This document shows positions 1 to 22,138 of a stretch of DNA of 64,000 nucleotides, in pieces (the first letter of the stretch is position 1; every line of letters starts with the position of its first letter). A program made the translations under genes and the position numbers. Below the pieces are notes generated by a model. That model was not told where the DNA came from. It ran no database searches and worked only from the letters and a program-made list of their open reading frames with translations. Source of the stretch: an uncultured Alphaproteobacteria bacterium (GTDB lineage Bacteria > Pseudomonadota > Alphaproteobacteria > Rs-D84 > CACZYB01); contig CALXYK010000007.1 in the NCBI GenBank assembly GCA_944392955.1, positions 11,003 through 75,002 on the forward strand, in the 5' to 3' direction.

Positions 1-1118
1 TCTTACTAGAAAAACCATACATAAATGAAAAATGGATATCAACTGGCGGAAATAGTAAAAATACCATCGGACATATAGGGGGGAAAAAATCATTTAAAAA
101 ACTTTTCTCTAAAAATATAGGTAAGGTAAATTCCACTCAACAAATTTTGTATTCTCCTGTGGCTAACAAAGATATTGTTTATACCATATCCGGAAACCTA
201 AAACTTACCGCATCAGATATAAAAACAGGTAAAACATTATGGGAAAAGGAAAAATTAAAAAATAATGATTTAATAAAATTTGGTGCACTTGCTCTTGATG
301 ATAACTATTTATATGTAATAACAAACAATTCCCAACTTTTAAAACTTGATGCTAAAACAGGAGAAATAATTTACAGTAAATATTTCAACACAACTCTTAA
401 ATCAGGTCTACAATTATGTAATAACATGTTGCTATTCATAGATGATTCAAACGAACTTTTTGCTGTTAATGCCCAAAACGGAGAAAAAGCATTTACACAT
501 AAATCTATGGAAGAATCTTCCTCTTTCATAAAAGGTTCAACCCCATTATGCATAAATGATAAAATAATTGCCACTTTTTCAAATGGTGAAATTCATATGA
601 TTATGCAGGACACCGCAACACCAATATGGCTAAGTTCTATATATAAGATAAGCCCTTCTAACATAAACAACATAACAGATATAGTTGCAAACCCTATCAC
701 GAACGGCAATATAGTTATAGTAAAAGGATATAATGATATAACAAAGGCAATAGATATAAACGAAGGTATGACTCTTTGGGAAAACAATAACGGAGGCATC
801 ACAACTCCAACACTATCCAACGATATAATGTTTGATATAAATAATAATAAAGTGTTATCTGCAACCGACATAATAACTGGGAAAATTATATGGGAAAGTA
901 AACTTCCTTCCACACCAAAGGAAATATTCTTTGATCCATTATTGGTAAACAATCAATTAATAATACCTATATCAAATGGAGAAATAATAAAATTTAATCC
1001 TTATACAGGAAGGCAAATATCTATTGATAAATTAACAAATAAAATAGATACAAATCCAATAGTTATAGAAGGCTACTTAATAATAATTTCTGACGGGAAT
1101 TTAGAAATTTTTAGTTAA
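1..1118 (+). CDS. PQQ-repeat beta-propeller lipoprotein, BamB-like (5' partial; frame is open from the window edge, so the TTG at 147 is only the first in-frame start)
   Basis: Repeated tGK.lW / aldaktGe..W blade motifs typical of PQQ-like propellers such as BamB. No stop codon in this frame between nt 3 and 146. Confidence 0.5.
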   Translation, partial: LLEKPYINEKWISTGGNSKNTIGHIGGKKSFKKLFSKNIGKVNSTQQILYSPVANKDIVYTISGNLKLTASDIKTGKTLWEKEKLKNNDLIKFGALALDDNYLYVITNNSQLLKLDAKTGEIIYSKYFNTTLKSGLQLCNNMLLFIDDSNELFAVNAQNGEKAFTHKSMEESSSFIKGSTPLCINDKIIATFSNGEIHMIMQDTATPIWLSSIYKISPSNINNITDIVANPITNGNIVIVKGYNDITKAIDINEGMTLWENNNGGITTPTLSNDIMFDINNNKVLSATDIITGKIIWESKLPSTPKEIFFDPLLVNNQLIIPISNGEIIKFNPYTGRQISIDKLTNKIDTNPIVIEGYLIIISDGNLEIFS

Positions 1119-2129
1119 AAACCTTTTTTTAAACTTCACCCAAAAACTTTCTGGTTGAGAGTCATATAGTTTTTGTAACACTGGATCATCAAAATAAAAT
1201 CCCTTATATCCCTTTAATTTTCTTAATACCTTTAAGAACTTTTTATACTCCTTATGATCTTCTTTCCACACTGTATATTTATCATACTCTTTACACATCT
1301 GAGAAGTATTCCAGTTTCTAAATCTCCAAAAATTAGCTGTCGCCCCTAATTTATTAGCAAGTTTTACAAATTTTACCATTTCGCGGTAATTCAAAGAACT
1401 TACAACAAACATCATATTGAAATATGGAATTTCTCCCTTTTTAACAAGCGAAGAAATCCATTTTAAATTTTTTATCACCCTATCAAAATTACTTCCCCTT
1501 ACTATTTTATCATATACCTTCTTGGATGCCGCATGAACGGATATATAAACAAAAGACATTCGTCCTAAGAATCCGAAATCACGACAATGTTCCTCATCAA
1601 ACAATAAACCATTACTAAGCACCATAAACTTAACATTTGGTTTTATTTCTAATATTTTTCTAACTAATAGTTTCATATGATTACTAGCAAAAACCTCTCC
1701 TCCTCCATTCAGATAAATAACTTTTACATTTTTACATATATCAATAAATCTATCCATAAATTTATTAAAATATTCTGTATTTTCTTTTGATTCATAAATA
1801 AAATCATCTCTACACATAACACATCTAACATTACATGCTTTAATATAAGAAAGATGAATAACTTCAGGATAAGAGGGATATAAATCCACCATCGTTTTAT
1901 AATCAAAATTCTTTGTACATAATGTTAAATCACACCCTTCGTATGTCTCTTTAATAACAGACTTCCTAAATTCTACTGCCTTTTCTCCATACCATATTTC
2001 TTCAAAAGTAGATTCAAAGATATTCCCAATACACTTCTTTTGAAGAGTTGGACAACAAAACCAACAACTTCCATTTAACTCCACTGCAAATCTAACAAAC
2101 GGTGCTTTACAACAAGATCTTTTAGTCAT
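1101..2129 (-). CDS. radical SAM protein, paralog A, with an N-terminal SPASM/twitch-like Cys-rich domain
   Basis: CNVRCVMC (CX3CX2C) at about residue 100. LNGGGE glycine-rich SAM motif. N-terminus CCKAPF...NGSCWFCC...CIGNIFESTFEEIWYG...FRKS...C-x4-C resembles the SPASM consensus (GNi..s..eiW.s....fR). About 80% aa identity to the upstream paralog. RBS GAGGAAG. Confidence 0.75.
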   Translation of the reverse strand: MTKRSCCKAPFVRFAVELNGSCWFCCPTLQKKCIGNIFESTFEEIWYGEKAVEFRKSVIKETYEGCDLTLCTKNFDYKTMVDLYPSYPEVIHLSYIKACNVRCVMCRDDFIYESKENTEYFNKFMDRFIDICKNVKVIYLNGGGEVFASNHMKLLVRKILEIKPNVKFMVLSNGLLFDEEHCRDFGFLGRMSFVYISVHAASKKVYDKIVRGSNFDRVIKNLKWISSLVKKGEIPYFNMMFVVSSLNYREMVKFVKLANKLGATANFWRFRNWNTSQMCKEYDKYTVWKEDHKEYKKFLKVLRKLKGYKGFYFDDPVLQKLYDSQPESFWVKFKKRFLTKNF

Positions 2130-2159
2130 TTAACTTCCTCTTTTTAAACAAAATAAAAA

Positions 2160-3182
2160 TTACAATTTCAAAAACCTCTTTTTAAACTTCACCCAAAAAC
2201 TTTCTGGTTGAAAGTCATATAGTTTTTGTAATACAGGATCATCAAAATAAAATCCCTTATATCCCTTTAATTTTCTTAATACCTTTAAGAATTTTTTATA
2301 TTCTTTATGATCTTTTTCCCATACTGTATATTTATCATATTCTTCACATATCTTAGAAACCTTATAATTTCTAAATCTCCAAAAAGTAGCCGTTGCACCT
2401 AATTTATTTGCAAGTTTTACAAATTTTACCATCTCACGGTAATTCAAAGAACTTACAACAAACATAATACTAAAATATGCAATTTCTTCCTTTTTCAAAA
2501 GTGATGAAATCCATTTTAAATTTTTTATCACCCTATCAAAATTACTTCCCCTTACTATTTTATCATATACCTTCTTGGATGCCGCATGAACAGATACAAA
2601 CACCCCTAACATTTTTCCTAGTACAGCGAAATCACGACAATGTTCCTCATCAAACAATAAACCATTACTATGTAAAATAAACTTAACATCCGGCTTTATT
2701 TCTAATATCTTCGTAACTAATAATTTCAAATGACTACTAACAAAAAATTCCCCTCCTCCATTCATATAAATTGTTTTAGCATTTTTACATATATCAATAA
2801 ATCTATCCATAAATTTATTAAAATATTCTGTATTTTCTTTTGATTCATAAATAAAATCATCTCTACACATAACACATCTAACATTACATGCTTTAACATG
2901 ACAAAACTGTATAACCTCTGGATAAGGAGGATATAAGTCCGGTAATATATCATCTTCAAAAAATTTTCTACACAAAGAAAAATCACACCCTTCATATGTT
3001 TCCTTAATAACAGATTTTCTAAATTCTACTGCCTTTTCCCCGTACCATATTTCTTCAAAAGTAGATTCAAAAATATTTCCTATACACTCCTTTTGCGAGC
3101 CTGAACAACAAAACCAACAATCACCACTTAATTCTATAGAAAACTTCACAAACGGGGCTTTACAACAAGTAAATTCGGACAT
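2160..3182 (-). CDS. radical SAM protein, paralog B (tandem duplicate of paralog A)
   Basis: Same CX3CX2C and GGGE motifs and the same N-terminal Cys-rich SPASM-like domain. Strong SD AGGAGGAGG lies inside the last codons of mnmG, so it is co-transcribed with mnmG. Confidence 0.75.
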   Translation of the reverse strand: MSEFTCCKAPFVKFSIELSGDCWFCCSGSQKECIGNIFESTFEEIWYGEKAVEFRKSVIKETYEGCDFSLCRKFFEDDILPDLYPPYPEVIQFCHVKACNVRCVMCRDDFIYESKENTEYFNKFMDRFIDICKNAKTIYMNGGGEFFVSSHLKLLVTKILEIKPDVKFILHSNGLLFDEEHCRDFAVLGKMLGVFVSVHAASKKVYDKIVRGSNFDRVIKNLKWISSLLKKEEIAYFSIMFVVSSLNYREMVKFVKLANKLGATATFWRFRNYKVSKICEEYDKYTVWEKDHKEYKKFLKVLRKLKGYKGFYFDDPVLQKLYDFQPESFWVKFKKRFLKL

Positions 3183-3190
3183 TCCTCCTC

Positions 3191-5032
3191 CTATTTTTTC
3201 ACATATTTTAGTAATGCAGTCAATGCCGCAGGTGTCATTCCAGGTATCCTAGAAGCACTTGCCAAAGTAGTAGGCTTTGACTTTTGTAATTTATATTTTA
3301 TTTCTAATGTTAAGCCACCTACTTTATTATAATCAATATCATCAGGAATTTTTAAATTTTGATCTTTTTTATAAGATAAAATATCTTGTTCCTGCCTTTT
3401 TAAATAACCCTGATATTTTCCTTCTATACCAACTTGTTTTATAGAAACATCATCAAAATCTGTAATCTCTGGAATTATAATTTTAAGCTTTTCTATATTC
3501 AAATCTGCATATTTTAAGGATTCATAAGCGTTACATCCAGCGGCACCACAACCTTCGCAATTTATCAATTTAAGCAATTTATTGTTAATTTTTTTACTTT
3601 TTAAAAAGTTTCTTAAAGTATCAAGTTGCTTCATCTTTTCAGTAAAGAAAATTTTTCTTTCATCACTAACTACACCTATTGCAATACCAATAGGGGTAAG
3701 TCTCTGATCTGCATTATCAGCCCTTATACTAAGTCTATATTCGGACCTTGCCGTAAACATACGATAAGGTTCATCTACCCCAAGTGTAGTAATATCATCC
3801 ACTAACACACCTATATATGCCTGACTTCTATCCAAAACAATTTCTTCTTGATTTTTCGCAAATAATCCAGCATTTATACCAGCTAAAATTCCCTGCGAAG
3901 CCGCCTCTTCATAGCCACTAGTTCCATTTATCTGTCCTGCAAAATAAAGTCCCTTTATCCTTTTAGATCTTAATGTAGGTTTTAACTCCCTTGCATCAAT
4001 AGCATCATACTCTATTGCATAACCATACCTAATTATTTTAACATTTTTTAAGCCTTTAATAGATCTTATAAAGGCATCTTGAACATCTTTTGGTAAAGAA
4101 GTAGAAATTCCATTAGGATAGATAACATCAGAATCATAACCTTCCTGCTCTAAAAAAACATGATGAGATTCGTGATGAGCAAACCTTACAACCTTATCTT
4201 CAATACTAGGGCAATACCTAGGTCCTATAGACTTTATCTGCCCATTATAAAGAGGTGTCCTATCTTTATTATCAGTAATAATTTTATGAGTAATTTTATT
4301 TGTGTAAGTAATATAACAAGGAAGTAGTTTTTGTGTTATTTTCTTTGTCATAAAGGAAAAAGGTTCCGGAGGATTATCACTCAACTGACATTCCAAATCG
4401 CTATAATCAATAGTTGCCTTAGAAAGCCTTGCCGGAGTTCCAGTTTTAAGTCGTAAAATCTCAAACCCGGCTTTTTTTAAAGATTCTGTAATTCCATAAC
4501 TGGCACTTTCTCCAACTCTACCACCAAAAGTTTTTTCTTCCCCCGTATGCATAACACCATTTAAAAAGGTTCCAGTCGTAACTACAACGGAAATACAATC
4601 AATAACACCTGTATTTTTTAAAACAACACCTTTAACCTCCAAAAACTTGTCATCAAATAATATCTCCACAGCCTCATCTTCTATTATAGTAAGATTTTTT
4701 TGACTTTCTAAGGTTTCACGGATTGCTTTTTTATACAAAGTTCTATCTGCCTGAGCCCTAGGTCCCTGAACAGCGGCACCTTTGGACGCATTTAAAACTC
4801 TAAATTGAGTACCTGCAAAATCAATAGCCTTTGCCATTACTCCATCTAAGGCATCAATCTCACGCACTAAGTGCCCTTTCCCTAACCCACCAATAGAAGG
4901 ATTACAGGACATTTCTCCTAAATTATTTTTTGAAAATGTAACTAACAAGGTTTTTAAACCTAACCTTGCCGAAGCAGCACATGCTTCAACACCGGCATGT
5001 CCGCCTCCTACAACTACTACATCATAATTCAT
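3191..5032 (-). CDS. mnmG: tRNA uridine 5-carboxymethylaminomethyl modification enzyme MnmG (GidA)
   Basis: N-terminal FAD-binding motif VVVVGGGHAGVEA. Length 613 aa. Full-length GidA-like sequence. Confidence 0.95.
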   Translation of the reverse strand: MNYDVVVVGGGHAGVEACAASARLGLKTLLVTFSKNNLGEMSCNPSIGGLGKGHLVREIDALDGVMAKAIDFAGTQFRVLNASKGAAVQGPRAQADRTLYKKAIRETLESQKNLTIIEDEAVEILFDDKFLEVKGVVLKNTGVIDCISVVVTTGTFLNGVMHTGEEKTFGGRVGESASYGITESLKKAGFEILRLKTGTPARLSKATIDYSDLECQLSDNPPEPFSFMTKKITQKLLPCYITYTNKITHKIITDNKDRTPLYNGQIKSIGPRYCPSIEDKVVRFAHHESHHVFLEQEGYDSDVIYPNGISTSLPKDVQDAFIRSIKGLKNVKIIRYGYAIEYDAIDARELKPTLRSKRIKGLYFAGQINGTSGYEEAASQGILAGINAGLFAKNQEEIVLDRSQAYIGVLVDDITTLGVDEPYRMFTARSEYRLSIRADNADQRLTPIGIAIGVVSDERKIFFTEKMKQLDTLRNFLKSKKINNKLLKLINCEGCGAAGCNAYESLKYADLNIEKLKIIIPEITDFDDVSIKQVGIEGKYQGYLKRQEQDILSYKKDQNLKIPDDIDYNKVGGLTLEIKYKLQKSKPTTLASASRIPGMTPAALTALLKYVKK

Positions 5033-5127
5033 TTTTATTTTTCAATACATTAAAAATAATATCTATAACAACAATTATAGATATTAAAAAAATAATAGCA
5101 ATTTATTTTTATATACAATCACACATA

Positions 5128-5904
5128 TTATCTAACTTTTTCCGATAACAAATCAGATATAATTGATGGTAATTTGGTAATATCTGACTTTTCTGATATA
5201 ATCACATCTGGATTATTACATTGCAAATGAAAGATGCTTACATATTTAGAAAACGCTGCACCAATAGATTTCATCCCCGCATTTTTAGCCATAACCATAT
5301 CACCCAATGAATCTCCAATCATAACGGCATTAGAAAGTTTTATTCCCAATTCCTGTGAAATATATTCAACTATCTGAGTATCAGGTTTATCTTTAAATTG
5401 TAATCCACCATCAGTTGCTTCTATAATGTCAAAACAACCTTCAACACCTTCATATTTTAGGAATTGCATTATAGAGTTCAAATCCCTAGAAGAAGCAATA
5501 GCCAAAGCAATATCAGTTTTTGCAAGTTCTAAAATGACATTTTTCATACCTGTAAAAAATTCCATTTGCTTAAAATATTTAGGTTCATTAAACAACTTTG
5601 TAACAAGAGGTTGAACATTTTCAGTATATATTTTTTTCTGTTCTTTCAAATTACGTCCCCAACCTAAATATTTTTTATCATATAACATAAAAAAGTTAGA
5701 AACTATATTATCATCATAAGGAAGACCATAAAAATCCAAAACAACTTTATTTATTTTATTAAAAACATGTTTTGATTTTACCAAAGTTTCATCAAAATCA
5801 AACACTACCAATTTATTTTTAGCTTTTTTTAGTCTGCTTATTACAAAATTATTAGATATATTAGATATATCTTTAAAAACCACTTTTTTTTCTATTGAAT
5901 TCAT
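5128..5904 (-). CDS. HAD-superfamily phosphatase (subfamily IA)
   Basis: Motif I VVFDFDETL. Motif IV GDSLGDMVMAKNAG. Confidence 0.65.
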   Translation of the reverse strand: MNSIEKKVVFKDISNISNNFVISRLKKAKNKLVVFDFDETLVKSKHVFNKINKVVLDFYGLPYDDNIVSNFFMLYDKKYLGWGRNLKEQKKIYTENVQPLVTKLFNEPKYFKQMEFFTGMKNVILELAKTDIALAIASSRDLNSIMQFLKYEGVEGCFDIIEATDGGLQFKDKPDTQIVEYISQELGIKLSNAVMIGDSLGDMVMAKNAGMKSIGAAFSKYVSIFHLQCNNPDVIISEKSDITKLPSIISDLLSEKVR

Positions 5905-5972
5905 TTTTATTTCCTACTATTATCTGTTTATATTATTTAAAATATGACGGATATTAAACAAAGGAATTTATT

Positions 5973-8900
5973 ATGTCAAGTAAAAATATTTATCCAGAAA
6001 CAAATAGCAAACCAAATTTCCCTAAAATAGAAGAGGAAATACTCTCCTTTTGGAATAAAAATAACATATTTCAACGCAGTATAGATGAAAGATCGGAAAA
6101 GGATGAATTTGTATTCTATGATGGTCCACCTTTTGCAAATGGATTACCTCATTATGGTCATGTTTTACAAAGTTTCACAAAGGATACTATTGCCCGTTAT
6201 CAAACAATGAAGGGAAAAAGAGTAAAAAGGCGTTGGGGATGGGACTGCCACGGGCTACCACCTGAATTAAAAACAGAAAAGGAATTGGGAATATCTGGCA
6301 AAAAAGCAATAGAAGAATTTGGTGTTGATAAATTCACCGATAAATGCCGCATAGATGTTTTAACTTATGCAAATGAATGGAAGGGAATAATAAACCGACT
6401 TGGACGTTGGGTTGATATGGACAATGCCTATAAAACAATGGATAAGGAATATTCTGAAAGTATTATATGGGCATTTAAACAATTATATGAAAAGGGACTA
6501 TTATACGAAGATTTTAGAATACTTCCATATTCATGGAGTGCAGAAACCCCATTATCAAATTTTGAGGTAAATCAGGCATACCAAGATAAAACAGACAATA
6601 CCGCAACCGTAAAATTTAACCTTGAAAATGGATTAACTCTTTTGGTATGGACAACAACACCTTGGACATTACCATCTAATTTAATGTTGGCAGTAGGTGA
6701 AGATATAACCTATTCAATATACGAATTAAACGGCGAAAAATTAGTTTTAGCAACATCCAGAGTAGATGCATACAAAAAGGAACTTGAAAAAGCAACTTTC
6801 ATAAAAGAAATAAAAGGAAAGGAACTAGTTGGATTACACTACACCCCACTTTTCCCTTACTTTGCAGATTACAGGGAAAAATATGATGCTTTTCAAGTAT
6901 TAAAGGCTGACTTTGTATCAACCGAAGACGGAACAGGTATAGTCCATATGGCACCTGGATTTGGTGAAGACGACTTTAACTTATGTAAAAGTTTCAGCCC
7001 TAACTTCCCTATCCTATGTCCAGTAGACGGCACCGGAAAATTCACCTCCGAAGTTCCTGATTTCAGTGGACAACAAGTTTTTGATACAAATGACGCTATC
7101 TTTAAAAGATTAAAAGAAGAAAACAAATTATTTAAAAAAGATCAACTAACCCACTCTTATCCATTTTGTTGGAGAACTGACAAACCTCTTATCTATAAAG
7201 CTATGAGTTCATGGTTTGTCCGTGTTGAACAAATAAAGGATAAATTAATAAAGGCAAATGAAACTATTACCTGGATACCTGAACATATAAAACATGGTCG
7301 ATTCGGTAAATGGTTAGAAGGAGCAAGGGATTGGTCCATATCCAGAAACAGATTCTGGGGTGCACCTCTACCTGTTTGGAAATCAACAGATCCTAAATAC
7401 CCAAGGATTGATGTTTTCGGCTCTATAAAGGAAATAGAAGAAGCATCAGGTATGAAGGTAACCGATTTACACAGACCACACATAGATAAAATTACATATC
7501 CAAATCCTGATGATCCTACTGGAAAATCCATGATGGTAAGGATTCCTGATGTATTTGATTGCTGGTTTGAAAGTGGCTCTATGCCATTTGCATCATGTCA
7601 TTATCCATTTGAAAACAAAGAATGGTTTGAAAAGAATTTTCCTGCTGATTTCATTACTGAGGCAACAGATCAAACTCGCGGTTGGTTTTATACACTAGTA
7701 GTCATGGGTGTAGCATTGTTTGACAAGGCACCTTTCAAAACTTGTGTATGCTCTGGTTTCGTTTTTGATGAAAAAGGGCAAAAACTATCAAAAAAACTGG
7801 GAAATTACTCCGAACCTACGGAATTTTTTAATAAATATGGCTCTGATTCTTTCCGTTGGCTATTATTATCTTCCCCATTATTAAGAGGTGAAATTGCAAA
7901 AATTTCAAAAGAAGGAACTGAGGTATCAGCCGTAACCAGAAAGGTCTTGATACCATACTATAATGCATATCACTTCTTTACACTATATGCAAATGCCGAT
8001 TCTATAAAGGCTGAATATAATACAACATCAAATGAATTGATGGATAGGTACATATTGGCTAAATTAGAAGAATTAAAAGAAATTGCAGATAAAACAATGT
8101 CAAATTATGATATTGCAACATTCTGTTCAGAGGTAGAAAGATTCCTTGATATCCTAAACAACTGGTATATCCGCCAATGTAGGGAACGATTCTGGGGAAC
8201 AAATGTATCAAAGGAAACCCAGATAAAGGCATTTAATACCCTTTACTCTGTTTTAATAAATATATCAAAAATCATGGCACCATTAATGCCATTTACAACA
8301 GAATATATCTATAAAAATCTTACAGGTGAGGATTCAGTGCATCTCACTTTCTATCCAAAGGCAAGTGGTAATAAAGAAGAAGATTTAATAACTTCTATGG
8401 ATACAATAATATCCATATGTTCAAGTGTAAAAACCCTAAGGGAAGAAGCATCTATCAGAAATCGTCAACCTTTACAAAGTTTGACTATCGCTTCACCAAA
8501 GGCAGAACATCTGAAAACATATACTGACATAATAAAAACAGAATGTAATGTCAAAGATGTTATTTTCACAACAGATATAGATAAATATGCTAAAAAGATT
8601 TTATACATCTATACACCAATAGTCGGTAAACGACTTGGCCGTGCCTTAGCTGAAATTCAAAAATCTGCAAAAGAAAATAACTACACAATAAAAGATGGAA
8701 TATGTTCTATTGCAGGTTATGAATTATTTAGTAATGAATATGAAATAAAGGTAGAGGTCCTTGGCAATTTCAAAGGTAAATCTACTTCTGATAATTCTGC
8801 TGTTGTATTATTAGATACAACAATAACACCAGAATTAAAAACCGAAGGTATCATCAGAAATTTCATAAGAAATATTCAAGAGGAAAGAAAGAATAAAGAT

Positions 8901-11072: not shown

Positions 11073-11774
11073 CTACCAGTTATCACAAATTGAATTAACC
11101 CGTAAATATTCTGTATCAGTATCTAATTGAGAATTTTGTTCTAATATTTCCGTTTCCATTTTTTCCCTCAAAAGTAATATATTTGTATTTTCTGAAATAA
11201 TTTTATCTATTTTCTTAGCAACAACTTTTTCTGTAACATATTTTGGGAAATACATAACACCTAAATCATCAATTATATTTCTAAGTTCTTTTGCCAATAA
11301 ATTTCCATAATATTTAAGTTCTTTTTGATAAACATTTACATGTTGTTTCTCATGATTTTTAATCGCATTATATTCACAACTATCAACAGGATACTTACTA
11401 TCTATCAAAACATCTAATGATGGATAGCCAACAAAAAAATCAATAGAAGATAAATTTACACATACACCATCACCAACCTTATACCTGTCAAAGTCAAAAT
11501 CATATTTTATCTCTATATTTGCAACGGTAACTCCCATAGTTTTATCTGGATTATGTAATTTATCAAATTTTAAGATTTCACTTTTGGGAACAGATTTATA
11601 TAAGACATTACCATAATTTACCCTAGTTATTATATTAGGTTCTCTATAAAATCTATCACAACTTTCACCCGCCCAAACAGACAAAGAAAAAAAACAAAAC
11701 CCAGTGATTTTGATAAATTTTGGTATAATTTTATTTAAACGAGTCAAGATAAACCTCCACAAATTTATCTCCAT
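11073..11774 (-). CDS. DUF922-like putative secreted Zn metalloprotease (HExxH)
   Basis: N-terminal hydrophobic signal-like segment. HEKQH zinc-binding motif. The ORF overlaps the virB4 3' end by 44 nt, so the start is uncertain. Confidence 0.45.
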   Translation of the reverse strand: MEINLWRFILTRLNKIIPKFIKITGFCFFSLSVWAGESCDRFYREPNIITRVNYGNVLYKSVPKSEILKFDKLHNPDKTMGVTVANIEIKYDFDFDRYKVGDGVCVNLSSIDFFVGYPSLDVLIDSKYPVDSCEYNAIKNHEKQHVNVYQKELKYYGNLLAKELRNIIDDLGVMYFPKYVTEKVVAKKIDKIISENTNILLLREKMETEILEQNSQLDTDTEYLRVNSICDNW

Positions 11775-14178
11775 GAAGTTTTCTTAACTCTTCTACAAGT
11801 AATACCTGCTTTCTTCCACTATTAAATATCTGTAAATAAGGACCAAGTCCGGACAAATCAACATTCAATATAACAGATTCATCAATAGAAGGTTTTCTAA
11901 ACAATATTGCATACTTTAAGTCTTTAAAAATTTTACCTTGAATAAATGCCATTTCTTTCGGTGTCAGATTCCAACTTTCGTAATCTTCTACCATTGCCTG
12001 TGTATTACGGAAAAATATTTGTGTCTGACATTGGCCACGAATAACCTCACCTATACCAAGTTTATCTAAAACATTAGGTTGTTGGAATGCAGCAAGGTAT
12101 GCTTGTCTCTTTTTTCTACCTTCTTGAAGACCTATAACAAAATTATTTCTAAACTCAGGATTTTGCAACATAGGCGCTGTTTCATCAATAATAATCAAGG
12201 ATGGATCGCCTGTTCTCCCTGTTATATTTTGTATTCTATTCATAATATAACTTACCACTGCCGGAGCCAAAGTATTATCCTCAAATATATAAGTAAAATC
12301 AAATGCAGTAAATCTATTAGAAAGATCTAAATTATCTGACTCACTATTAAATAACAAACCATACTGAGAATCGTCAACCCAACGGAACAACTCTCTCCTC
12401 ATTTTTCCAGCGGGAGAAAAACAGGATTTGTATAAATTCTTCAAATTTCTTTTGCTTGGCTCTAAGTAATCAAATGCAGTAGTAACAGCTCTTGCAATTT
12501 CTGCCTCACTTGTTGCATCATTTACCAAAGTAATTTCTTTCAACCATCGTCTTAAAAAGGCCCTATTCTCAGGATTATCTTCTATTCTAAAAGGATTTAA
12601 ATGAGCAATAGTTCCCGTTTTTTTAACATCTTTATCCTTTGTATCACCCTCAAAATTTATATAGGACCCACCAATAGCATAAGTAAATATTTCTGCACCT
12701 CTATACCTATCAAAAAAGAAACACTTTAAATCTTTAAATCTTAATGCCTGTCCTGCCAAGAAAGAATATAGGGTTGTTTTACCCTGCCCCGTAGGGCCAA
12801 TTGCAACTGTATGAGCAACCGCAGTAGGTTCTTCCGACACATGAAATTCAAACTGATATGCCGTTCCTTGATAAGTAGGGAAAATTGTAATAGGACCTTC
12901 TCCCCAATCACACTTTGACAATCCCCCAGGTTGCCTTTCAAAATTAAAACTTGCCGCAACAGCCCTAGAAAGCATCTTATACATTCTAGGATATTTATCA
13001 TAAGTAGGGAATTGTGAAAACCAAGATGCTTGTGCCACCCAACCTTCACGAACAGGCGTAATTCCATAAAGACGACAAATTTTTTCTATCTCAAAAACAG
13101 CCTTATCTAAATCTTCCAATTTTTCAGCACTAACAAAAAAAGTTTCCGCATAATTAACCAAAGTTTGATGATCTTCGTCCCCCTGCTCTATCAATGCTAA
13201 CGCATCATCAAATTGCCTTAATACATCATAAGAAAATGTAGTAGAACTTGCCATCCTGCGCTGATTTATTAAAACCATTTGGGCTTTTAATTTTGAAATA
13301 GGAAATAAATTATGCAAAACAGTAATTTCAAAATTTTGTGATAATATATCTGATAACATCTGTTCATCTACGGAATTTGCTTGTTGTTTAATACCAACAA
13401 CAGACATATATTTAGTTTTATTTCCTGAACTAAACCTTATATAACCTTTATTACTAAAAAATACTTCATCAGATACCAATAATTCGGAAACACTATCATA
13501 AATTATATTATCCGAACTAGGATGAGGACGACTGATAGGATTTATTATATGAGCGAAGAATGTAAGTGGGCTTTCGGAATCTTTACTTCCCTCTTTTAAT
13601 ATTTTTACCCCAAAATTTGATAAGATAGCCTCTAAATTAGAGGTTGCCGTATCTAAATCCTTTAAGGCATCCTTTCTATCATTAACAGAAATAACTATAT
13701 AATGAGAATTAACAAATATCTCACTTTGTGCTTCATTCCACTTTTCGCTAATGTCCTTTAATATTTTATTATAATTATTTACTAACTTTTCATTATTTGT
13801 CTTCTCTCTTATAGTAAAAATTCTAGTTTCCACACTAATTTCAGAAAGACTATCAATCCATTTTTTCCGCTCTTCTAAAAAGTTCTGTATAACTTCTCTT
13901 TTTGCAAAAGCAATTGAAACACCCGAAACTTTAAAAACCCTTAACAAGGTTCCATTTAAACATAATACAGTCTTCTTATCATCTAAAATTCTTTCAAAAG
14001 GTAAATAATCAACCAACCTAGTATCAAAAGGTTTTGGTAAAAATAAGTTCATTTTCTGAGATAAAAAAACTACTACCAAAACAGATACAGCAATAACTGC
14101 AATTACTAAAAACAAGTAATATACATTTGAAAGACCAGATACTAAAACATTTTCTAAATTAAATTCCATATTCTGCAC
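11731..14178 (-). CDS. virB4: type IV secretion system ATPase VirB4
   Basis: 815 aa. Walker A GPTGQGKTT. N-terminal TM segment. Immediately downstream of virB3. Confidence 0.88.
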   Translation of the reverse strand: MQNMEFNLENVLVSGLSNVYYLFLVIAVIAVSVLVVVFLSQKMNLFLPKPFDTRLVDYLPFERILDDKKTVLCLNGTLLRVFKVSGVSIAFAKREVIQNFLEERKKWIDSLSEISVETRIFTIREKTNNEKLVNNYNKILKDISEKWNEAQSEIFVNSHYIVISVNDRKDALKDLDTATSNLEAILSNFGVKILKEGSKDSESPLTFFAHIINPISRPHPSSDNIIYDSVSELLVSDEVFFSNKGYIRFSSGNKTKYMSVVGIKQQANSVDEQMLSDILSQNFEITVLHNLFPISKLKAQMVLINQRRMASSTTFSYDVLRQFDDALALIEQGDEDHQTLVNYAETFFVSAEKLEDLDKAVFEIEKICRLYGITPVREGWVAQASWFSQFPTYDKYPRMYKMLSRAVAASFNFERQPGGLSKCDWGEGPITIFPTYQGTAYQFEFHVSEEPTAVAHTVAIGPTGQGKTTLYSFLAGQALRFKDLKCFFFDRYRGAEIFTYAIGGSYINFEGDTKDKDVKKTGTIAHLNPFRIEDNPENRAFLRRWLKEITLVNDATSEAEIARAVTTAFDYLEPSKRNLKNLYKSCFSPAGKMRRELFRWVDDSQYGLLFNSESDNLDLSNRFTAFDFTYIFEDNTLAPAVVSYIMNRIQNITGRTGDPSLIIIDETAPMLQNPEFRNNFVIGLQEGRKKRQAYLAAFQQPNVLDKLGIGEVIRGQCQTQIFFRNTQAMVEDYESWNLTPKEMAFIQGKIFKDLKYAILFRKPSIDESVILNVDLSGLGPYLQIFNSGRKQVLLVEELRKLHGDKFVEVYLDSFK

Positions 14179-15998: not shown

Positions 15999-16013
15999 AA
16001 CAACCTCATTTAA

Positions 16014-16655
16014 TCAAAGATTTTTTTCAAATTTATTATGCATACATTTTATAATAGTTTTATGTATACCCGTAGTAATATCATAATATATATGTCTACC
16101 ATCACGCCTAGATACAACAAAACCATCATCTTTTAGTCGTTTTAAATATTGAGATAATTTCATTTGTTCTATATTAACACCCTTTGAAATATCAGAAACA
16201 CAACTTTCACCAAAAATAGCTAAGAACTCTAAAATACGCATTTTATCAATATGACAAAATAATTTTATTTGGTTAGCGACCATCATAGTAAAATCTCTTG
16301 GCAAAATAGCTTTGTAATTATCTACTAAAAAATCATAAGAATTAGCAATATAACCATACAATTTTCTGATACAATTAAACAAACTTGCAGGATATTCTCC
16401 ATCTAATGAGTAAAAGATAAATTTACCCTTTCTTTCACAACGAACCAAACCAGCATCTTTTAATTTTTTTAAATTCTGTGAAACTATCAGTTGTTCTTCT
16501 TTTATAGATTTTGCAATATTTAATACCGAAGAAGTTTGATAAATATCCAAAAATTCTACTATCCTTAACCTTATAGGATGTCCCAAATATGAAACTCCTT
16601 TAACTGCTTTTTTCATTAAATTTATAGGCAATTGTTTTTTCATTTCTTCACCCAA
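16014..16655 (-). CDS. transcriptional regulator with two tandem ArsR/SmtB-type winged-HTH domains
   Basis: Two repeats of the H.IRLrIvEFL...L..L.kaGlV pattern, at residues about 25-100 and 125-200. Confidence 0.55.
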   Translation of the reverse strand: MGEEMKKQLPINLMKKAVKGVSYLGHPIRLRIVEFLDIYQTSSVLNIAKSIKEEQLIVSQNLKKLKDAGLVRCERKGKFIFYSLDGEYPASLFNCIRKLYGYIANSYDFLVDNYKAILPRDFTMMVANQIKLFCHIDKMRILEFLAIFGESCVSDISKGVNIEQMKLSQYLKRLKDDGFVVSRRDGRHIYYDITTGIHKTIIKCMHNKFEKNL

Positions 16656-16779
16656 TAAGTATTATATATAACAATACTCCGAAGAAAATATTTTTCAATA
16701 TATTTATAAATTTTTACACTAAAAAAGAAACCTTAGAAAATATATTTGATATAATAAAAAAAATCTAGCTAACAGACTT

Positions 16780-16854
16780 TGGCTGGGGTGGCTGGATTCG
16801 AACCAACGAATGGCGGAACCAAAACCCGCTGCCTTACCACTTGGCGACACCCCA
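16780..16854 (-). tRNA. tRNA-Gln (anticodon UUG)
   Basis: 75 nt. Differs from the 15139..15213 copy at about five positions including the anticodon (TTTTGGT loop). CCA is encoded. Confidence 0.85.
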
Positions 16855-16914
16855 ATAAATTACTGGCTATTCTAATACAATATACTAAAAAATCAAGTAA
16901 AAAATATAAAACTA

Positions 16915-17127
16915 TCAATCAATTATACTAAATCTATCTACTAATACACCATTTATATCTTTTACTTTCTCACTAAACATAACCAAAGGCCTTGCCCAAA
17001 TTTTACCATCACTAACTGATTTATATATAACTAAATCTTCCATAGTTTCTGTATGCTTAGCAAATGTAATTATCTCATAAACATTTCCTTTATAATGTTT
17101 ATATTTTTTACCTATTTCTACCGACAT
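16915..17127 (-). CDS. DUF1653 family protein
   Basis: YKHYKGNVYEI...AKHTET...VIYKS pattern. 70 aa. Overlaps the upstream Nudix gene by 10 nt. Confidence 0.55.
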   Translation of the reverse strand: MSVEIGKKYKHYKGNVYEIITFAKHTETMEDLVIYKSVSDGKIWARPLVMFSEKVKDINGVLVDRFSIID

Positions 17128-17615
17128 ATATTTTTTTCCAATAAAATTTTCAAAGCAAACAATGTGTTTTTATTAAATTGAGCAGGATTATTAAGAATTT
17201 CTTTCCTCAAAGTATCAATATTAAATTCTACTATACTTTGTATTTCTTCTTCATCAGGATAATAAGGTCCATCATTTATTGCAAGAAATACTTTATGAAA
17301 TGATTTTTGTTTTCCATCTTTAAAATGTGGAAAATAAGCTATTTCTTCTTGCAATTCAACAGAAACACCTAATTCTTCTATTGTTTCCCTAACTGCTGCA
17401 TGTTCATAACTTTCAAAAAAATTAACATGACCACCAGCAGAATAACCTATTCTTTCTTTTTTATCTTTTAACAAAGATTTCTTTGAAAGTAATATATTTC
17501 CATTACTTTTTATAATAATAACAGCAGCAATACGTTTAATTTCATCAGTAATCTGATAGTGATACAACCCATCTATTACTTTATCTTTATTATCTACAAT
17601 AGCAATTTTTTTCAT
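17118..17615 (-). CDS. Nudix hydrolase
   Basis: Nudix box GGHVNFFESYEHAAVRETIEELGV. ATG at 17615 preferred over the TTG at 17627. Confidence 0.75.
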   Translation of the reverse strand: MKKIAIVDNKDKVIDGLYHYQITDEIKRIAAVIIIKSNGNILLSKKSLLKDKKERIGYSAGGHVNFFESYEHAAVRETIEELGVSVELQEEIAYFPHFKDGKQKSFHKVFLAINDGPYYPDEEEIQSIVEFNIDTLRKEILNNPAQFNKNTLFALKILLEKNICR

Positions 17616-17629
17616 TTTTGTTAACAAAT

Positions 17630-17801
17630 TGTTAATAACCTGTTAATAAGTTATAAAATAAGATAACAAAAAAATCAATTAACATTTTTATAAACATGTT
17701 AATAAAAAACATAAATATATAAAACTTGTTAATAATTAAATAAAAAATCCCGTAAATTCAGGGATTTTAATATATTTAAAAATTTTATATTCTGTTAATA
17801 A
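17630..17801. repeat. five copies of TGTTAATAA in the Nudix-parB intergenic region (at 17630, 17641, 17697, 17727, 17793)
   Basis: Direct reading of the sequence. The first two copies are 11 bp apart and form TTAA-N7-TTAA. Confidence 0.6.
17736..17767 (-). terminator. rho-independent terminator for parB
   Basis: Stem AAATCCC/GGGATTT with a 9-nt loop, followed on the minus strand by TTTTTTATTT. Confidence 0.6.
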
Positions 17802-17856
17802 ATAATAATATAAAAAATAATAAACAAATTCACAAGACCAACAAAAACATTATTAT

Positions 17857-18735
17857 TTATATATTATTTAATTTAGTTGTTATATTATTAAGCTCAGACA
17901 AATCATTAAACTTAATAATAATTTCACCTTTTTTACCTTTAAGTTTAATATCTACTTTTGCATTCAATATATTAGATATATTTTCTTTGATTGATATAAG
18001 TTCTTCATTAACTTTGGAAATATTAAGTTGTTTAATATTCTTTTTATTTTTAATTATTTTTTCTGCTTGTTTAACTGTTAAGTTTCCTTCTATTATAGAT
18101 TTAGCTTGTTCCAAAGGATTTTTTACGCCTATTAAACTTCTTGCCATACTATAAGATAATGATCCATCATCTACCATATTTTGAACTTTTTGTGGTAAAG
18201 ATAATAATCTTAAAACATTTGCTACATAAGAACGACTTTTATTTACTATTTTTGATATATCTTCCTGTGTATAATTATAAACATTTATTAGATTTTTATA
18301 ACCATTTGCTTCTTCTATTGGTGAAAGATTTTCTCTTTGTAAATTTTCTATCAAACTTATTTCAAAAGTTTCTGTATCATTTAATTCTTTTATTATAACA
18401 GGGATTTCATATATACCAGCAAGATTTGCTGCTCTCCATCTTCTTTCTCCTGCTATTATTTCATACATATTAGGTTGATTTTTTATTGATCTTACTAAAA
18501 TAGGTTGTAAAACTCCATTTTTTTCAATAGAAAAAGCCAGCTCTTTTAATTGTTCTTCACTAAAATTTTTTCTAGGTTGATTTTTATTAGGTATTATATT
18601 TGATATTGGTATATATTTTACATCATTTGTATTTTCATTAGTATTATTAGTTGGATTTTGAAAAACAGGAACTTCTTGTTGTTTATTTTCAAAAAAAGTA
18701 GATAAACCTTTTCCTAATCTTGATTCTATTTTCAT
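17857..18735 (-). CDS. parB: chromosome partitioning protein ParB
   Basis: ParB box GERRWRAA. HTH region. Downstream of parA. Confidence 0.9.
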   Translation of the reverse strand: MKIESRLGKGLSTFFENKQQEVPVFQNPTNNTNENTNDVKYIPISNIIPNKNQPRKNFSEEQLKELAFSIEKNGVLQPILVRSIKNQPNMYEIIAGERRWRAANLAGIYEIPVIIKELNDTETFEISLIENLQRENLSPIEEANGYKNLINVYNYTQEDISKIVNKSRSYVANVLRLLSLPQKVQNMVDDGSLSYSMARSLIGVKNPLEQAKSIIEGNLTVKQAEKIIKNKKNIKQLNISKVNEELISIKENISNILNAKVDIKLKGKKGEIIIKFNDLSELNNITTKLNNI

Positions 18736-18758
18736 AATTTTTACTCCATTAAAAATTT

Positions 18759-19562
18759 TTATGCAACTTGTTGTAAAAGATCATTTTTATTTAAAAATTC
18801 AGCAGCTAAATTTATATAAGCTTGACTTCCCATACAATCTAAATCATATAAAATAACTGGTTTTCCATGAGAAGGAGCCTCTGAAATTCTAACATTTCTA
18901 GGAATAACTGTATTAAATACAAGTTCACCAAAACATTTTCTTACATCATCTTCTACAAGTTCTGATAATTTATTTCTTCTATCATACATAGTAAGTAATA
19001 CACCTTCTATTTGTAAATTTTTATTAAAATTTTGTTGAACAAGTTGTATTGTGTTCATAAGATGACTTACTCCTTCTAATGCAAAAAATTCACATTGTAA
19101 AGGAATCATAACAGAGTCAGAAGCACACAAAGCATTTAATGTTAAGAATCCCAAAGCAGGTGGGCAATCTATTAAAATATAATCATATCCGGCTAAAAAC
19201 GAATTTTTTTCAAATAAATGTCTTAATTTTAATGTTTTATCATCTATATTTGATAATTCTATTTCTGCTGCTGATAAATCTATAGAAGCAGGAATTACAT
19301 CAAGATTTTTTATTTTTGTTGTATGTATTGCTTCGTGAAAATTATTTTTATTAAATAAAAGAGAATAAATATCTTTTATTCTATCATCTTGTTCTATACC
19401 TAAACCTGTGCTTGCATTTCCTTGTGGATCAAAGTCTATAACTAAAACTTTTTTATCAACAGTTGCAAGTGCAGTTGCTAAATTTATAGCAGTTGTTGTT
19501 TTTCCAACCCCGCCTTTTTGATTAGTTATTGATATTATTTTTGTATTTTGAAATATATTCAT
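18759..19562 (-). CDS. parA: chromosome partitioning ATPase ParA
   Basis: Deviant Walker A KGGVGKTT. Length 267 aa. Confidence 0.9.
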   Translation of the reverse strand: MNIFQNTKIISITNQKGGVGKTTTAINLATALATVDKKVLVIDFDPQGNASTGLGIEQDDRIKDIYSLLFNKNNFHEAIHTTKIKNLDVIPASIDLSAAEIELSNIDDKTLKLRHLFEKNSFLAGYDYILIDCPPALGFLTLNALCASDSVMIPLQCEFFALEGVSHLMNTIQLVQQNFNKNLQIEGVLLTMYDRRNKLSELVEDDVRKCFGELVFNTVIPRNVRISEAPSHGKPVILYDLDCMGSQAYINLAAEFLNKNDLLQQVA

Positions 19563-19722
19563 TTTTCCTCCTAAAAGATACTAACTATAAATAAAAATAC
19601 ACTTTTAAAAAGTATATTTCAATATATTTTTAAATTTTTTTATAGTTTAAAAGAATAATTTTATATTACAAAGTAATAAAAATAACATTTAACATTTTGT
19701 TTTTACTAATAATATTAAAGAT

Positions 19723-19738
19723 TGTTTCATGTGAAACA
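19723..19738. promoter_or_regulatory. parS-like centromere site TGTTTCATGTGAAACA
   Basis: 16-bp near-palindrome matching the parS consensus tGTTNCACGTGAAACa with one central mismatch. Lies between rsmG and parA. Confidence 0.6.
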
Positions 19739-19773
19739 ATTTTAGTTAAAAATAAATTTTTGTATAAAATATT

Positions 19774-20334
19774 TTATTTTTTATAAATATTATAAATTTT
19801 TACTATATATCCATTGTTTTTTTTGAATAATTCATAATCAAAATACCAGTTATTTTTTGCAATATCTATCTCTTTATTTATATTTAGGCCCTTTAATAAA
19901 AACATTTCAGTATTTTTATTTATGATACTATTAACTAAACTTAAAAAATTATCTAACGGAGCAAAAGCTCTACCTATTATACAATTTATATTGTTATTAT
20001 TTATATTTTCAATTCTATCATTTATAATATTAGTATCAGTGTTATATATTCTTTTTATCTCTTTTAAGAAAAAACATTTCCTTTCATCGGATTCAACACA
20101 AGTAATATTTTTTATACCATAAACTGATAAAACCATACCAGGAAAACCGGCTCCGCTACCTATATCATATATACTATTTTTATTTTTTACAAAATCATAT
20201 AAAGATAAACTATCTAAAAAATGTCTATCCCATAAATTATTTACAGAATTTGGACTTATTAGATTTATACTTTTTTGCCATTTTAGTAAAGTATTTATAT
20301 AATTATCAAAAAGTTTTTTATCAAATTTATTCAT
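19774..20334 (-). CDS. rsmG: 16S rRNA (guanine527-N7)-methyltransferase RsmG (GidB)
   Basis: SAM-binding motif DIGSGAGFPG. Conserved rsmG-parA-parB gene order. Confidence 0.9.
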   Translation of the reverse strand: MNKFDKKLFDNYINTLLKWQKSINLISPNSVNNLWDRHFLDSLSLYDFVKNKNSIYDIGSGAGFPGMVLSVYGIKNITCVESDERKCFFLKEIKRIYNTDTNIINDRIENINNNNINCIIGRAFAPLDNFLSLVNSIINKNTEMFLLKGLNINKEIDIAKNNWYFDYELFKKNNGYIVKIYNIYKK

Positions 20335-20407
20335 CTTTTATACTTTTTTTTTAATCAAAATTATGATACAATTATTACAATAATATAATAAAGGAATATA
20401 GAATATT

Positions 20408-22138
20408 ATGAATAATAAAACAATAAAAAATTGTATATCTTATATTTTTGTTATTCTTTTTATATCATTTATTATCTTTATAAAATTTTTTGAAGAAGGT
20501 GATATAAAAGAAATTAAGAAAGGTGTAATTAGTAATATACCCGAAAATAAATATGGGTTATATTTATCAAGTTTCCATGCAAATCAAATAGCAGATTATG
20601 GAAGATTGTTATCTTTTTATGATGAAGCGGTAAAACAAAATGATAAAGATTTTCTTGGAAAATTACTGGTTTTACATTCTATGAATAGCAATAGTGATGA
20701 TATATTTAAATTAGCACAAGAAGAATACAAAAAAGATAAAACCAATATAATTCCTGTTATGTATATTAGTAATCATTATTTTGTGAAAAAAGACTATAAA
20801 AAATCTATGGAATTATTAAATAGTATAAAAGGTAAAGGTGATAATTTTGTTATAAAGTTATTAAAATCATGGGTTCTTATGGGACAAAAACAATATGATC
20901 AAGCAAAATTATTATTAGAAAAAGATTTAGATGATGATAAAAATAAAATTTTTAAAAAATACTTATTGATGCATTTGGCTGCTGAAAATGAAATATCAGG
21001 AGATATAAAAAAGGCAAAACAACTTTATGAAGAAATTTTAAAATCTGAAAATATCAATTTATTTGATTTAGAAAATATATCAGCATTTTTTATAAAACAG
21101 AAAGATAAAAACAAAGCAATAGAAATAATAAAGGATTATTACAAAAAATCGCCGGATTCAGTATCTGCTTTATCATTTTTAAAAAGTATAGAAAATAACA
21201 CTTATATACCATCAGGAATAGATAGTGTAAATAAGGGTATGGCAAAGGCTATTTTTGATGTATCTAATATAATTAACTTTGTATTTACTTCTACACAAGA
21301 TTTAACACTTATGTATTTATCTATGATAATAGAATTATATCCAGAGTTTTATATGGCAAAATTGATGCAAGCCGAATTATATAAAAGTATAGGTAATTCA
21401 GAACTATTTTTAAGTATTACTGATTCAATTCCTACCACACATTATCTATATATAACAGGGCAATTAAATAAGATTTTATTTTCATCTAATGAAAATAACG
21501 ATTATAATACTATATCAAATATGTATGAACAATTAGCGTTAAAATATCCGGATTATCCGCAAATATATATAAGAATGGGTAATTTTTATAGGGAAAAGTA
21601 TGATTATAAAAAATCTTTAGAGGCTTTTTCACAGGCAATAAAATATGCAAGTGATAATACTCTATTATCAAATATTTATTTTGCTAAGGCTCAGGTTTAT
21701 GATATATTAAAAGACAAGGAAAATACAAAATTAAATCTGGAAAAAGCATATAAGCTTAATAATAAAACCGCACCTTTCTTAAATTATTATGGTTATTTTT
21801 TAATCATAAACGAAATAGATATGGATAAGGGAATCTTACTAATTAGTGAAGCATTAACAAAAGATGCCTTTAATTCTTATTACTTAGATAGTTACGGCTG
21901 GGCTTTGTTTAAAAGAGGAGAAATAGAAAAAGCTATAAATATTCTTGAATTAGCAAAATCAATCAATCCGATAAATCCGGTTATTATAAATCATTTAGCC
22001 GATGCATATTGGGAAAACAACAGAAAGCAAGAAGCAATATACGAATGGCAAAAAGTTTTATCTTTAAAAAAATATGATAGTGTAACTGAGCCAATAGATT
22101 ATAAAGAAATCAAAAGAAAAATAAACAGAGGTTTATAA
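20408..22138 (+). CDS. TPR-repeat membrane-anchored protein
   Basis: N-terminal TM anchor. Multiple W-LG-Y/A..A...F..A TPR-like repeats. Confidence 0.55.
   Translation: MNNKTIKNCISYIFVILFISFIIFIKFFEEGDIKEIKKGVISNIPENKYGLYLSSFHANQIADYGRLLSFYDEAVKQNDKDFLGKLLVLHSMNSNSDDIFKLAQEEYKKDKTNIIPVMYISNHYFVKKDYKKSMELLNSIKGKGDNFVIKLLKSWVLMGQKQYDQAKLLLEKDLDDDKNKIFKKYLLMHLAAENEISGDIKKAKQLYEEILKSENINLFDLENISAFFIKQKDKNKAIEIIKDYYKKSPDSVSALSFLKSIENNTYIPSGIDSVNKGMAKAIFDVSNIINFVFTSTQDLTLMYLSMIIELYPEFYMAKLMQAELYKSIGNSELFLSITDSIPTTHYLYITGQLNKILFSSNENNDYNTISNMYEQLALKYPDYPQIYIRMGNFYREKYDYKKSLEAFSQAIKYASDNTLLSNIYFAKAQVYDILKDKENTKLNLEKAYKLNNKTAPFLNYYGYFLIINEIDMDKGILLISEALTKDAFNSYYLDSYGWALFKRGEIEKAINILELAKSINPINPVIINHLADAYWENNRKQEAIYEWQKVLSLKKYDSVTEPIDYKEIKRKINRGL

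Follow-up and report, generated by a model that had tools for sequence, protein, structure and literature searches.

Tandem radical SAM paralogues with an N-terminal twitch domain downstream of mnmG in a clade of gut Alphaproteobacteria

We analysed a 64,000-nucleotide (nt) stretch of DNA from an uncultured alphaproteobacterium (assembly GCA_944392955.1, contig CALXYK010000007.1, positions 11,003 to 75,002), hereafter the window, in which two adjacent minus-strand genes near the left end encode radical S-adenosylmethionine (radical SAM, rSAM) proteins. The first to be read, rSAM_A (2160..3182, minus strand), encodes 340 amino acids (aa) that form an N-terminal twitch domain, a radical SAM core and a family-specific C-terminal helical region. 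Its tandem paralogue rSAM_B (1101..2129, minus strand; 342 aa) has the same architecture according to its open reading frame (ORF), Pfam matches and pairwise alignment. A third copy was not found in the window. Directly upstream of the pair lies mnmG (3191..5032, minus strand; 613 aa), which is preceded by a gene for a HAD-family hydrolase (5128..5904, minus strand). On the other side a convergent gene for a BamB-like beta-propeller protein (1..1118, plus strand) is cut by the left window edge, and its 3′ end overlaps the 3′ end of rSAM_B by 18 nt.

The three genes are closely packed. Gaps of 8 nt separate mnmG from rSAM_A and of 30 nt rSAM_A from rSAM_B (2130..2159, minus strand), the latter with GAGGAAG 5′ of the rSAM_B ATG. 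As the initial annotation of this DNA had stated, the ribosome-binding site of rSAM_A is embedded in the end of mnmG: the mnmG TAG (3193-3191) overlaps AGGAGGAGG (3192-3184), so that stop codon and binding site together occupy 3184..3193 on the minus strand, and the rSAM_A ATG follows at 3182-3180. Because no terminator-like sites were found in 900-6100 and a promoter scan gave only uninformative matches at chance level, co-transcription of mnmG with the rSAM genes is plausible and probably occurs.

Both proteins match Radical_SAM (PF04055) at residues 95-257 (54.0 and 50.9 bits; cutoff 29.5) and SPASM (PF13186) at residues 7-66 (38.2 and 34.5 bits; cutoff 21.5). The rSAM_A core (2412..2900, minus strand) carries the motif CNVRCVMC as C99-X3-C103-X2-C106, with CX3CX2C at nt 2865-2888, and the SAM motif NGGGE at residues 141-145; both motifs had been recognised in the initial annotation. 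Its N-terminal domain (residues 7-71; 2970..3164, minus strand) contains the cysteines that presumably ligate one auxiliary [4Fe-4S] cluster, and the corresponding twitch and core of rSAM_B lie at 1917-2111 and 1359-1847, respectively, on the same strand. The cysteine pattern of this domain is C7-X12-G20-X4-C25 (followed by C26), a helix, and then C66-X4-C71, which includes the conserved CX9-15GX4C hairpin motif of the SPASM/twitch subfamily. Among 106 diverse representatives, each standing for one cluster at 50% identity, C7, C25, C66 and C71 are present in 100, 104, 103 and 104, respectively, C26 in 91 and the core cysteines in 105. SPASM domains proper have a seven-cysteine pattern that includes CX2CX5CX3C and hold two auxiliary clusters. 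No CX2CX5CX3C block follows the helix in the window proteins, only C66-X4-C71. Because four cysteines are near-invariant and this block is absent, the domain is probably a twitch domain with one fully cysteine-ligated auxiliary [4Fe-4S] cluster and not a full SPASM domain. Thus, the original assignment to SPASM/twitch stands for the domain superfamily and narrows to its one-cluster form.

SPASM/twitch domains have been described as C-terminal extensions of the radical SAM core, in a group of approximately 165,000 genes (PMC9012708). In rSAM_A and rSAM_B the N-domain (7-71) instead precedes the core (95-257). BtrN (2-deoxy-scyllo-inosamine dehydrogenase; PDB 4M7S/4M7T), the prototype twitch enzyme, ranks well ahead of all other solved matches to a profile built from 95 diverse relatives (E 1.6e-19), and it aligns in two stretches of swapped order, profile 89-215 with BtrN 18-144 and profile 4-86 with BtrN 165-249. 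With rSAM_A alone as the query, the BtrN twitch (177-234) falls on residues 15-73 and the BtrN core (15-135) on residues 98-214, and C7, C25 and C71 align with cysteines of the BtrN auxiliary cluster. The SPASM domain of DynA (profile 254-313 of 356) likewise aligns to residues 11-68. These alignments bear out the suspicion that the domains are swapped, and the order read from the two proteins is the reverse of that in every solved or characterised SPASM/twitch enzyme. An AlphaFold2 model of rSAM_A forms a confident single body (pLDDT 91.8, pTM 0.88), which suggests that the twitch packs in a fixed position on the core. In the literature we found no paper on an N-terminal SPASM/twitch layout or on a circularly permuted SPASM, nor anything relevant that joins SPASM radical SAM enzymes with glycosyltransferases or O-antigen, and the work that we found on radical SAM enzymes that contain a twitch domain concerns C-terminal twitch domains only.

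The window proteins share with BtrN a homologous core and twitch, and their arrangement of Cys-hairpin-Cys plus a distal cysteine pair fits, as in BtrN, one fully cysteine-ligated auxiliary cluster. They differ from it in the position of the twitch (C-terminal in BtrN), in the distal pair (CX4C here, CX2C in BtrN), in an extra C-terminal region of approximately 80 aa and in having no aminoglycoside gene cluster around them, and their identity to BtrN is low. With the canonical SPASM enzymes (anSME, PqqE, MftC, SuiB, CteB) they have in common a PF13186 match above the gathering score, the hairpin motif and the type of core. Unlike those enzymes, they carry the domain at the N-terminus, would bind one auxiliary cluster and not two, and lack both an RRE and a gene for a peptide substrate.

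The arrangement had at first seemed exceptional, a view that database searches do not sustain. An exhaustive profile search over representatives of clusters at 50% identity returned 49,127 at E<=1e-3, 19,691 at E<=1e-10 and 1,947 at E<=1e-30, and nearly all of the top 150 matches align from profile position 3-6 and thus include the twitch. The twitch-first layout is already common in databases, with at least 1,947 clusters, and the source annotations are generic (“SPASM domain-containing protein”, “radical SAM protein”). The same twitch-then-core order is found in an NCBIfam family, NF033640 (N_Twi_rSAM, twitch domain-containing radical SAM protein), whose profile aligns collinearly, from about position 4 to 305, across N-domain plus core in relatives at loci L068 and L020, and which matches 78 of the 95 representatives at E<=1e-10. 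The window proteins score 54.3 and 53.4 bits against its 170-bit cutoff, however, and even the best of the 95 representatives (E 1.7e-31) stays under it. Because all scores are below the cutoff, we place the window family by sequence as a sister of NF033640, not a part of it, and as one without a curated model of its own. It does not coincide with a known, characterised family, since none of its members has been characterised, and we know of no characterised member of NF033640.

ORF calling with the family hidden Markov model yielded 150 members, spread over 88 loci. Family members typically occur as tandem duplicates, and the pair in the window, which had been flagged as an unusual duplication, is not odd for it because arrays are the rule. 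Large arrays, of at least ten back-to-back paralogues, occur in Melainabacteria/Gastranaerophilales of gut origin (L033 1201-16234, L043 12-14881, L021 6917-16715, L044 4759-13910), where genes of approximately 330 aa lie on both strands, nearly wall to wall, between flanking housekeeping genes. They comprise two subfamilies with a cysteine-rich N-terminus, of which only one has the CX12GX4C twitch signature. In other members (P0033, 1188 aa; P0115, 1565 aa; P0034-P0037) a single chain contains two to four N-twitch rSAM modules, sometimes together with a methyltransferase, and these chains may represent genuine fusions or tandem genes left unsplit. Speculatively, such arrays and double modules (P0033 and others) might be the raw material for a circular permutation of a BtrN-like ancestor by duplication, fusion and trimming. 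In Ruegeria, a distant member (L068 9001-9960, minus strand) is followed by a convergent gene for a 319-aa radical SAM protein without an N-terminal twitch, and the locus also encodes a 612-aa cyclase/TPR protein, a context unlike both the glycan and the mnmG settings described below.

The two window copies are 81% identical in protein sequence over 338 aa, ungapped, close to the roughly 80% first estimated, and 85% identical in DNA. Their longest identical tracts measure 117, 86, 56 and 44 nt, the first at 2780..2896 in rSAM_A (1727-1843 in rSAM_B) and the second at 2506..2591 (1453-1538), all on the minus strand, and 20,000 codon-position-preserving shuffles gave a maximum of 93 nt. Synonymous differences number about 3-5 per 20 codons elsewhere and 0 in codons 101-120 and 201-220. 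On the strength of the tract lengths relative to the shuffled sequences and of these codons without synonymous differences, the copies have probably been partly homogenised by gene conversion, and the 117-nt stretch is a probable conversion tract. This agrees with the earlier proposal of recent duplication or gene conversion from the identical stretches.

Related strains add to this picture. In a sister strain (L094, 1526-3607) the two copies do not differ between nt ~300 and ~1000, with A-type sequence over 361-660, B-type sequence over 661-960 and a copy-specific 5′ portion of 300 nt. Such a mosaic would be compatible with conversion whose switch points lie inside the identical tracts. A repeat collapsed during metagenome assembly would look alike, however, and we therefore do not count the mosaic as proof. 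In another relative (L092, 6001-7029) the only copy is A-like at its 5′ end and B-like at its 3′ end, a structure that unequal crossover might leave behind. L001, L006 and L012 carry a single gene in this slot, the window, L017 and L094 carry two, and L003 carries four. Paralogues group by genome in a neighbour-joining tree, so that on this tree the copy expansion is either lineage-specific or homogenised.

The relatives with this slot are gut alphaproteobacterial metagenome-assembled genomes (MAGs) from Hadza people, deer and rumen. They share a block that runs from IleRS through HAD, mnmG and a variable number of rSAM genes to BamB-like, TPR_21 and RNase PH genes and on to ZapA and Mitofilin. 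The junction between mnmG and rSAM measures -14 to +29 nt, on one strand, in every relative of the clade. The mnmG linkage and the slot, with its variable copy number, recur in related genomes, and the linkage, tight as it is, is limited to this one clade of gut Alphaproteobacteria. Clade genomes hold extra rSAM copies at unrelated sites (L013, L019, L036), and distant members lie elsewhere, after skp/ompH or convergent with trmFO. Between clade genomes the rSAM proteins are 44-53% identical, in contrast to 77-82% for mnmG and 78-86% for IleRS. The HAD hydrolase, syntenic in all relatives, diverges at the pace of the rSAM genes (45-52% identity) and sits between the slow-evolving IleRS and mnmG.

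The usual partners of mnmG are rsmG, parA and parB. In the window rsmG (GidB, 19774-20334), parA (18759-19562) and parB (17857-18735) form their usual operon on the minus strand approximately 15 kb from mnmG, and the rSAM genes take the place after mnmG where rsmG commonly sits. On the glycan reading that we favour below, the site after mnmG would be a permissive, well-expressed insertion slot. In loci of Melainabacteria type (L020 6834-10287, L022 2765-6251, L004 1-1562) a tandem N-twitch pair ends 4-10 nt from a convergent trmFO; trmFO is a GidA paralogue, and GidA-family tRNA enzymes thus adjoin the family in two phyla.

Clues to function come from fusions and operons across the family. N-twitch proteins are fused to class-I methyltransferases (P0038, P0085, P0156 and P0033, the last with two rSAM modules), to an FkbM methyltransferase (P0048), to a polysaccharide pyruvyl transferase (P0098) and to a GT1 glycosyltransferase (P0160). 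Two loci with relatives at 41-42% identity (L089, L091) have operons of the type SDR, C2185-like, GT2 and rSAM, extended in some cases by a methyltransferase and a further rSAM gene, and in both the GT2 stop overlaps the rSAM start. Two relatives on annotated plasmids, 25% identical over residues 5-333, lie in polysaccharide loci: the one from Paracoccus adjoins GT25, a second glycosyltransferase and a nucleotide-sugar dehydrogenase, and the one from Ca. Manganitrophus is surrounded by five glycosyltransferases, kinase-like genes, a phosphatase and an ABC exporter. The substrates of the nearest solved relatives are an aminocyclitol (BtrN), nucleotides (viperins, the second-best solved relatives, whose alignment reaches the C-terminal extension) and nucleotide-linked sugars (BlsE, DesII). 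Taken together, the fusions and operons point to sugar or glycan tailoring more than to tRNA modification.

We tentatively favour the interpretation that the rSAM pair represents lineage-specific tandem paralogues of the large N-twitch family, partly homogenised by conversion, that tailor sugars of surface glycans. The substrate of BtrN is sugar-like, and electrons are probably accepted by its auxiliary cluster (PMC9012708). By analogy, the core cluster of the window enzymes would reductively cleave SAM to a 5′-deoxyadenosyl radical, which would abstract a hydrogen atom from a substrate of the sugar or nucleotide-sugar type, while the four-cysteine twitch cluster would accept or relay an electron, as proposed for BtrN. 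The outcome would be an oxidation or epimerisation-type tailoring step on a cell-surface glycan. The genes occupy a copy-variable slot (1-4) 3′ of mnmG and would be read from the mnmG transcript while standing outside mnmG chemistry. The domain architecture, the conserved cysteines, the swapped-order homology to BtrN, the conversion tracts, the synteny and the glycan-type fusions and operons of other members are observations, but that the clusters are bound, which class of substrate is used, what reaction follows and whether the genes share a transcript are points that we infer. The accessory-gene behaviour of the rSAM genes (fast divergence, paralogues grouped by genome, one, two or four copies) supports glycan tailoring, and strain-to-strain variation in paralogue number and sequence would be as expected for surface-structure genes.

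Several observations weigh against a role in glycan tailoring. Glycosyltransferase or sugar-nucleotide genes are found neither beside the window rSAM genes nor in the visible syntenic block, and the Melainabacteria arrays contain no glycosyltransferase or peptide genes. The glycan associations come from relatives that are only 25-42% identical, and function may differ among subfamilies. In addition, the link between mnmG and rSAM is kept where the downstream flank is PBP1/FolD (L014-L016), which hints at more than hitch-hiking.

The persistence of the mnmG junction, clade-wide, on one strand and despite the changed downstream flank, is an argument for an alternative that we regard as unlikely, namely that the pair encodes tRNA wobble-uridine enzymes acting after MnmEG, as an O2-independent, non-orthologous stand-in for MnmC(o) or MnmL/YhcC. 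Such enzymes would perform a BtrN-like two-electron oxidation of the cmnm5 side chain to give nm5(s2)U, or form another xm5U. The lack of a terminator between mnmG and the rSAM genes is in line with this, and there is a precedent in MnmL/YhcC (YtqA), a radical SAM enzyme of the mnm5s2U pathway that is likewise genomically tied to the MnmEG pathway and demodifies cmnm5s2U anaerobically, with an anaerobic rationale that would suit the anaerobic gut habitat. However, MnmL/YhcC belongs to a different family (COG1242, PF16199, IPR005911) and clusters with mnmM, not mnmG, and the window proteins are not its homologues, with no match to PF16199 or TIGR01212 at E<=10 in Pfam and NCBIfam. The recurrent fusions of rSAM with class-I methyltransferases recall the logic of MnmL-MnmM and MnmC, but they are located in GT2/SDR operons. 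The Melainabacteria tandem pair abuts trmFO, yet the two are convergent and not operonic, and one independent event among approximately 45 loci is a coincidence that is not unlikely; we therefore set this adjacency aside as functional evidence. One to four copies, with extra copies elsewhere, would be odd for a housekeeping tRNA enzyme. The genes also evolve much faster than mnmG, and no RNA-binding domain was detected. With fast evolution, variable copy number, no relation to MnmL and glycan-type fusions and operons, the RNA-modification role put forward in the initial annotation is weaker than a role in sugar or glycan chemistry.

A broader scenario, which we judge quite unlikely as a whole, combines three propositions: that the N-twitch family arose from BtrN-like enzymes by true circular permutation, through tandem duplication and fusion, that the copies welded to mnmG form a new O2-independent branch of xm5U34 modification, non-orthologous to MnmC and MnmL, and that the Melainabacteria arrays of ten or more genes are a diversifying battery of radical enzymes.

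Most characterised SPASM/twitch enzymes are peptide or protein maturases, and the pair could in principle belong with them as an enzyme for peptides that are ribosomally synthesised and then post-translationally modified (RiPPs), an anSME-like enzyme or a metalloenzyme maturase. The best NCBIfam core matches are W_rSAM_matur, rSAM_Geo_metal, mycofactocin and HxsC, the structural neighbours include SkfB, CteB and SuiB, and some RiPP loci hold clusters of several paralogues. These NCBIfam matches reach only 54-71 bits against cutoffs of 170-400, though, and cover the core alone. No precursor-peptide ORF had been noted nearby, and with intergenic gaps of 8 and 30 nt we likewise found no conserved peptide-sized ORFs near the window rSAM genes or in the gaps of the rSAM arrays, no Pfam match to an RRE/PqqD domain and no protease or exporter nearby. 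One auxiliary cluster is predicted, not two, and the fusion partners in the family are glycan enzymes, not peptide-handling proteins. We rejected a RiPP maturase for want of small conserved ORFs and of an RRE, and consider a maturase of any kind very unlikely.

A viperin-like, nucleotide-modifying antiviral enzyme, with the arrays as defence islands, would accord with the rank of viperins among the solved relatives, with weak pVip matches in PADLOC and with the family expansions and rapid evolution, but it is highly improbable, since the pVip matches (32-42 bits) cover only the generic core at profile 2-160 of 257 (window proteins 36-37 bits over 2-159, short of a full-length match), NF038283 (viperin) scores 32.7 bits against a 180-bit threshold, no phage or defence neighbours were seen, phage genomes gave no matches, and viperins have no auxiliary cluster.

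The rSAM pair is real. It is not unique, however, and does not make a good case for an RNA-modification operon. What is known of SPASM/twitch mechanisms comes entirely from proteins in which the auxiliary-cluster domain follows the core, whereas the family with the opposite order has thousands of members with a BtrN-like four-cysteine twitch and none that is characterised. This family bears on whether the auxiliary cluster keeps its position and role after permutation, and its study would probably bring to light new sugar or glycan chemistry of the anaerobic kind in gut bacteria. The slot of one to four copies after mnmG, with its conversion tracts, offers a compact natural case in which enzyme paralogues evolve in concert. 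Of the leads, we find the biochemistry of the N-twitch, the persistent mnmG junction and the rSAM arrays of gut Melainabacteria the most intriguing.

Elsewhere in the window, the stretch 16001-22000 has a G+C content of 0.23-0.24, compared with ~0.29 for the whole window, and holds an ArsR/MarR-type regulator, parAB-rsmG and a TPR protein. The genome had been called endosymbiont-like, a description that is not established because the relatives come from the gut metagenomes and MAGs described above (Hadza, deer, rumen). The window also encodes a VirB4-type type IV secretion ATPase (11731-14178, minus strand), and the syntenic block of the relatives includes a Mitofilin/Mic60-like gene (L001 14495-15589). 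Both are consistent with a small-genome alphaproteobacterium of animal gut metagenomes.

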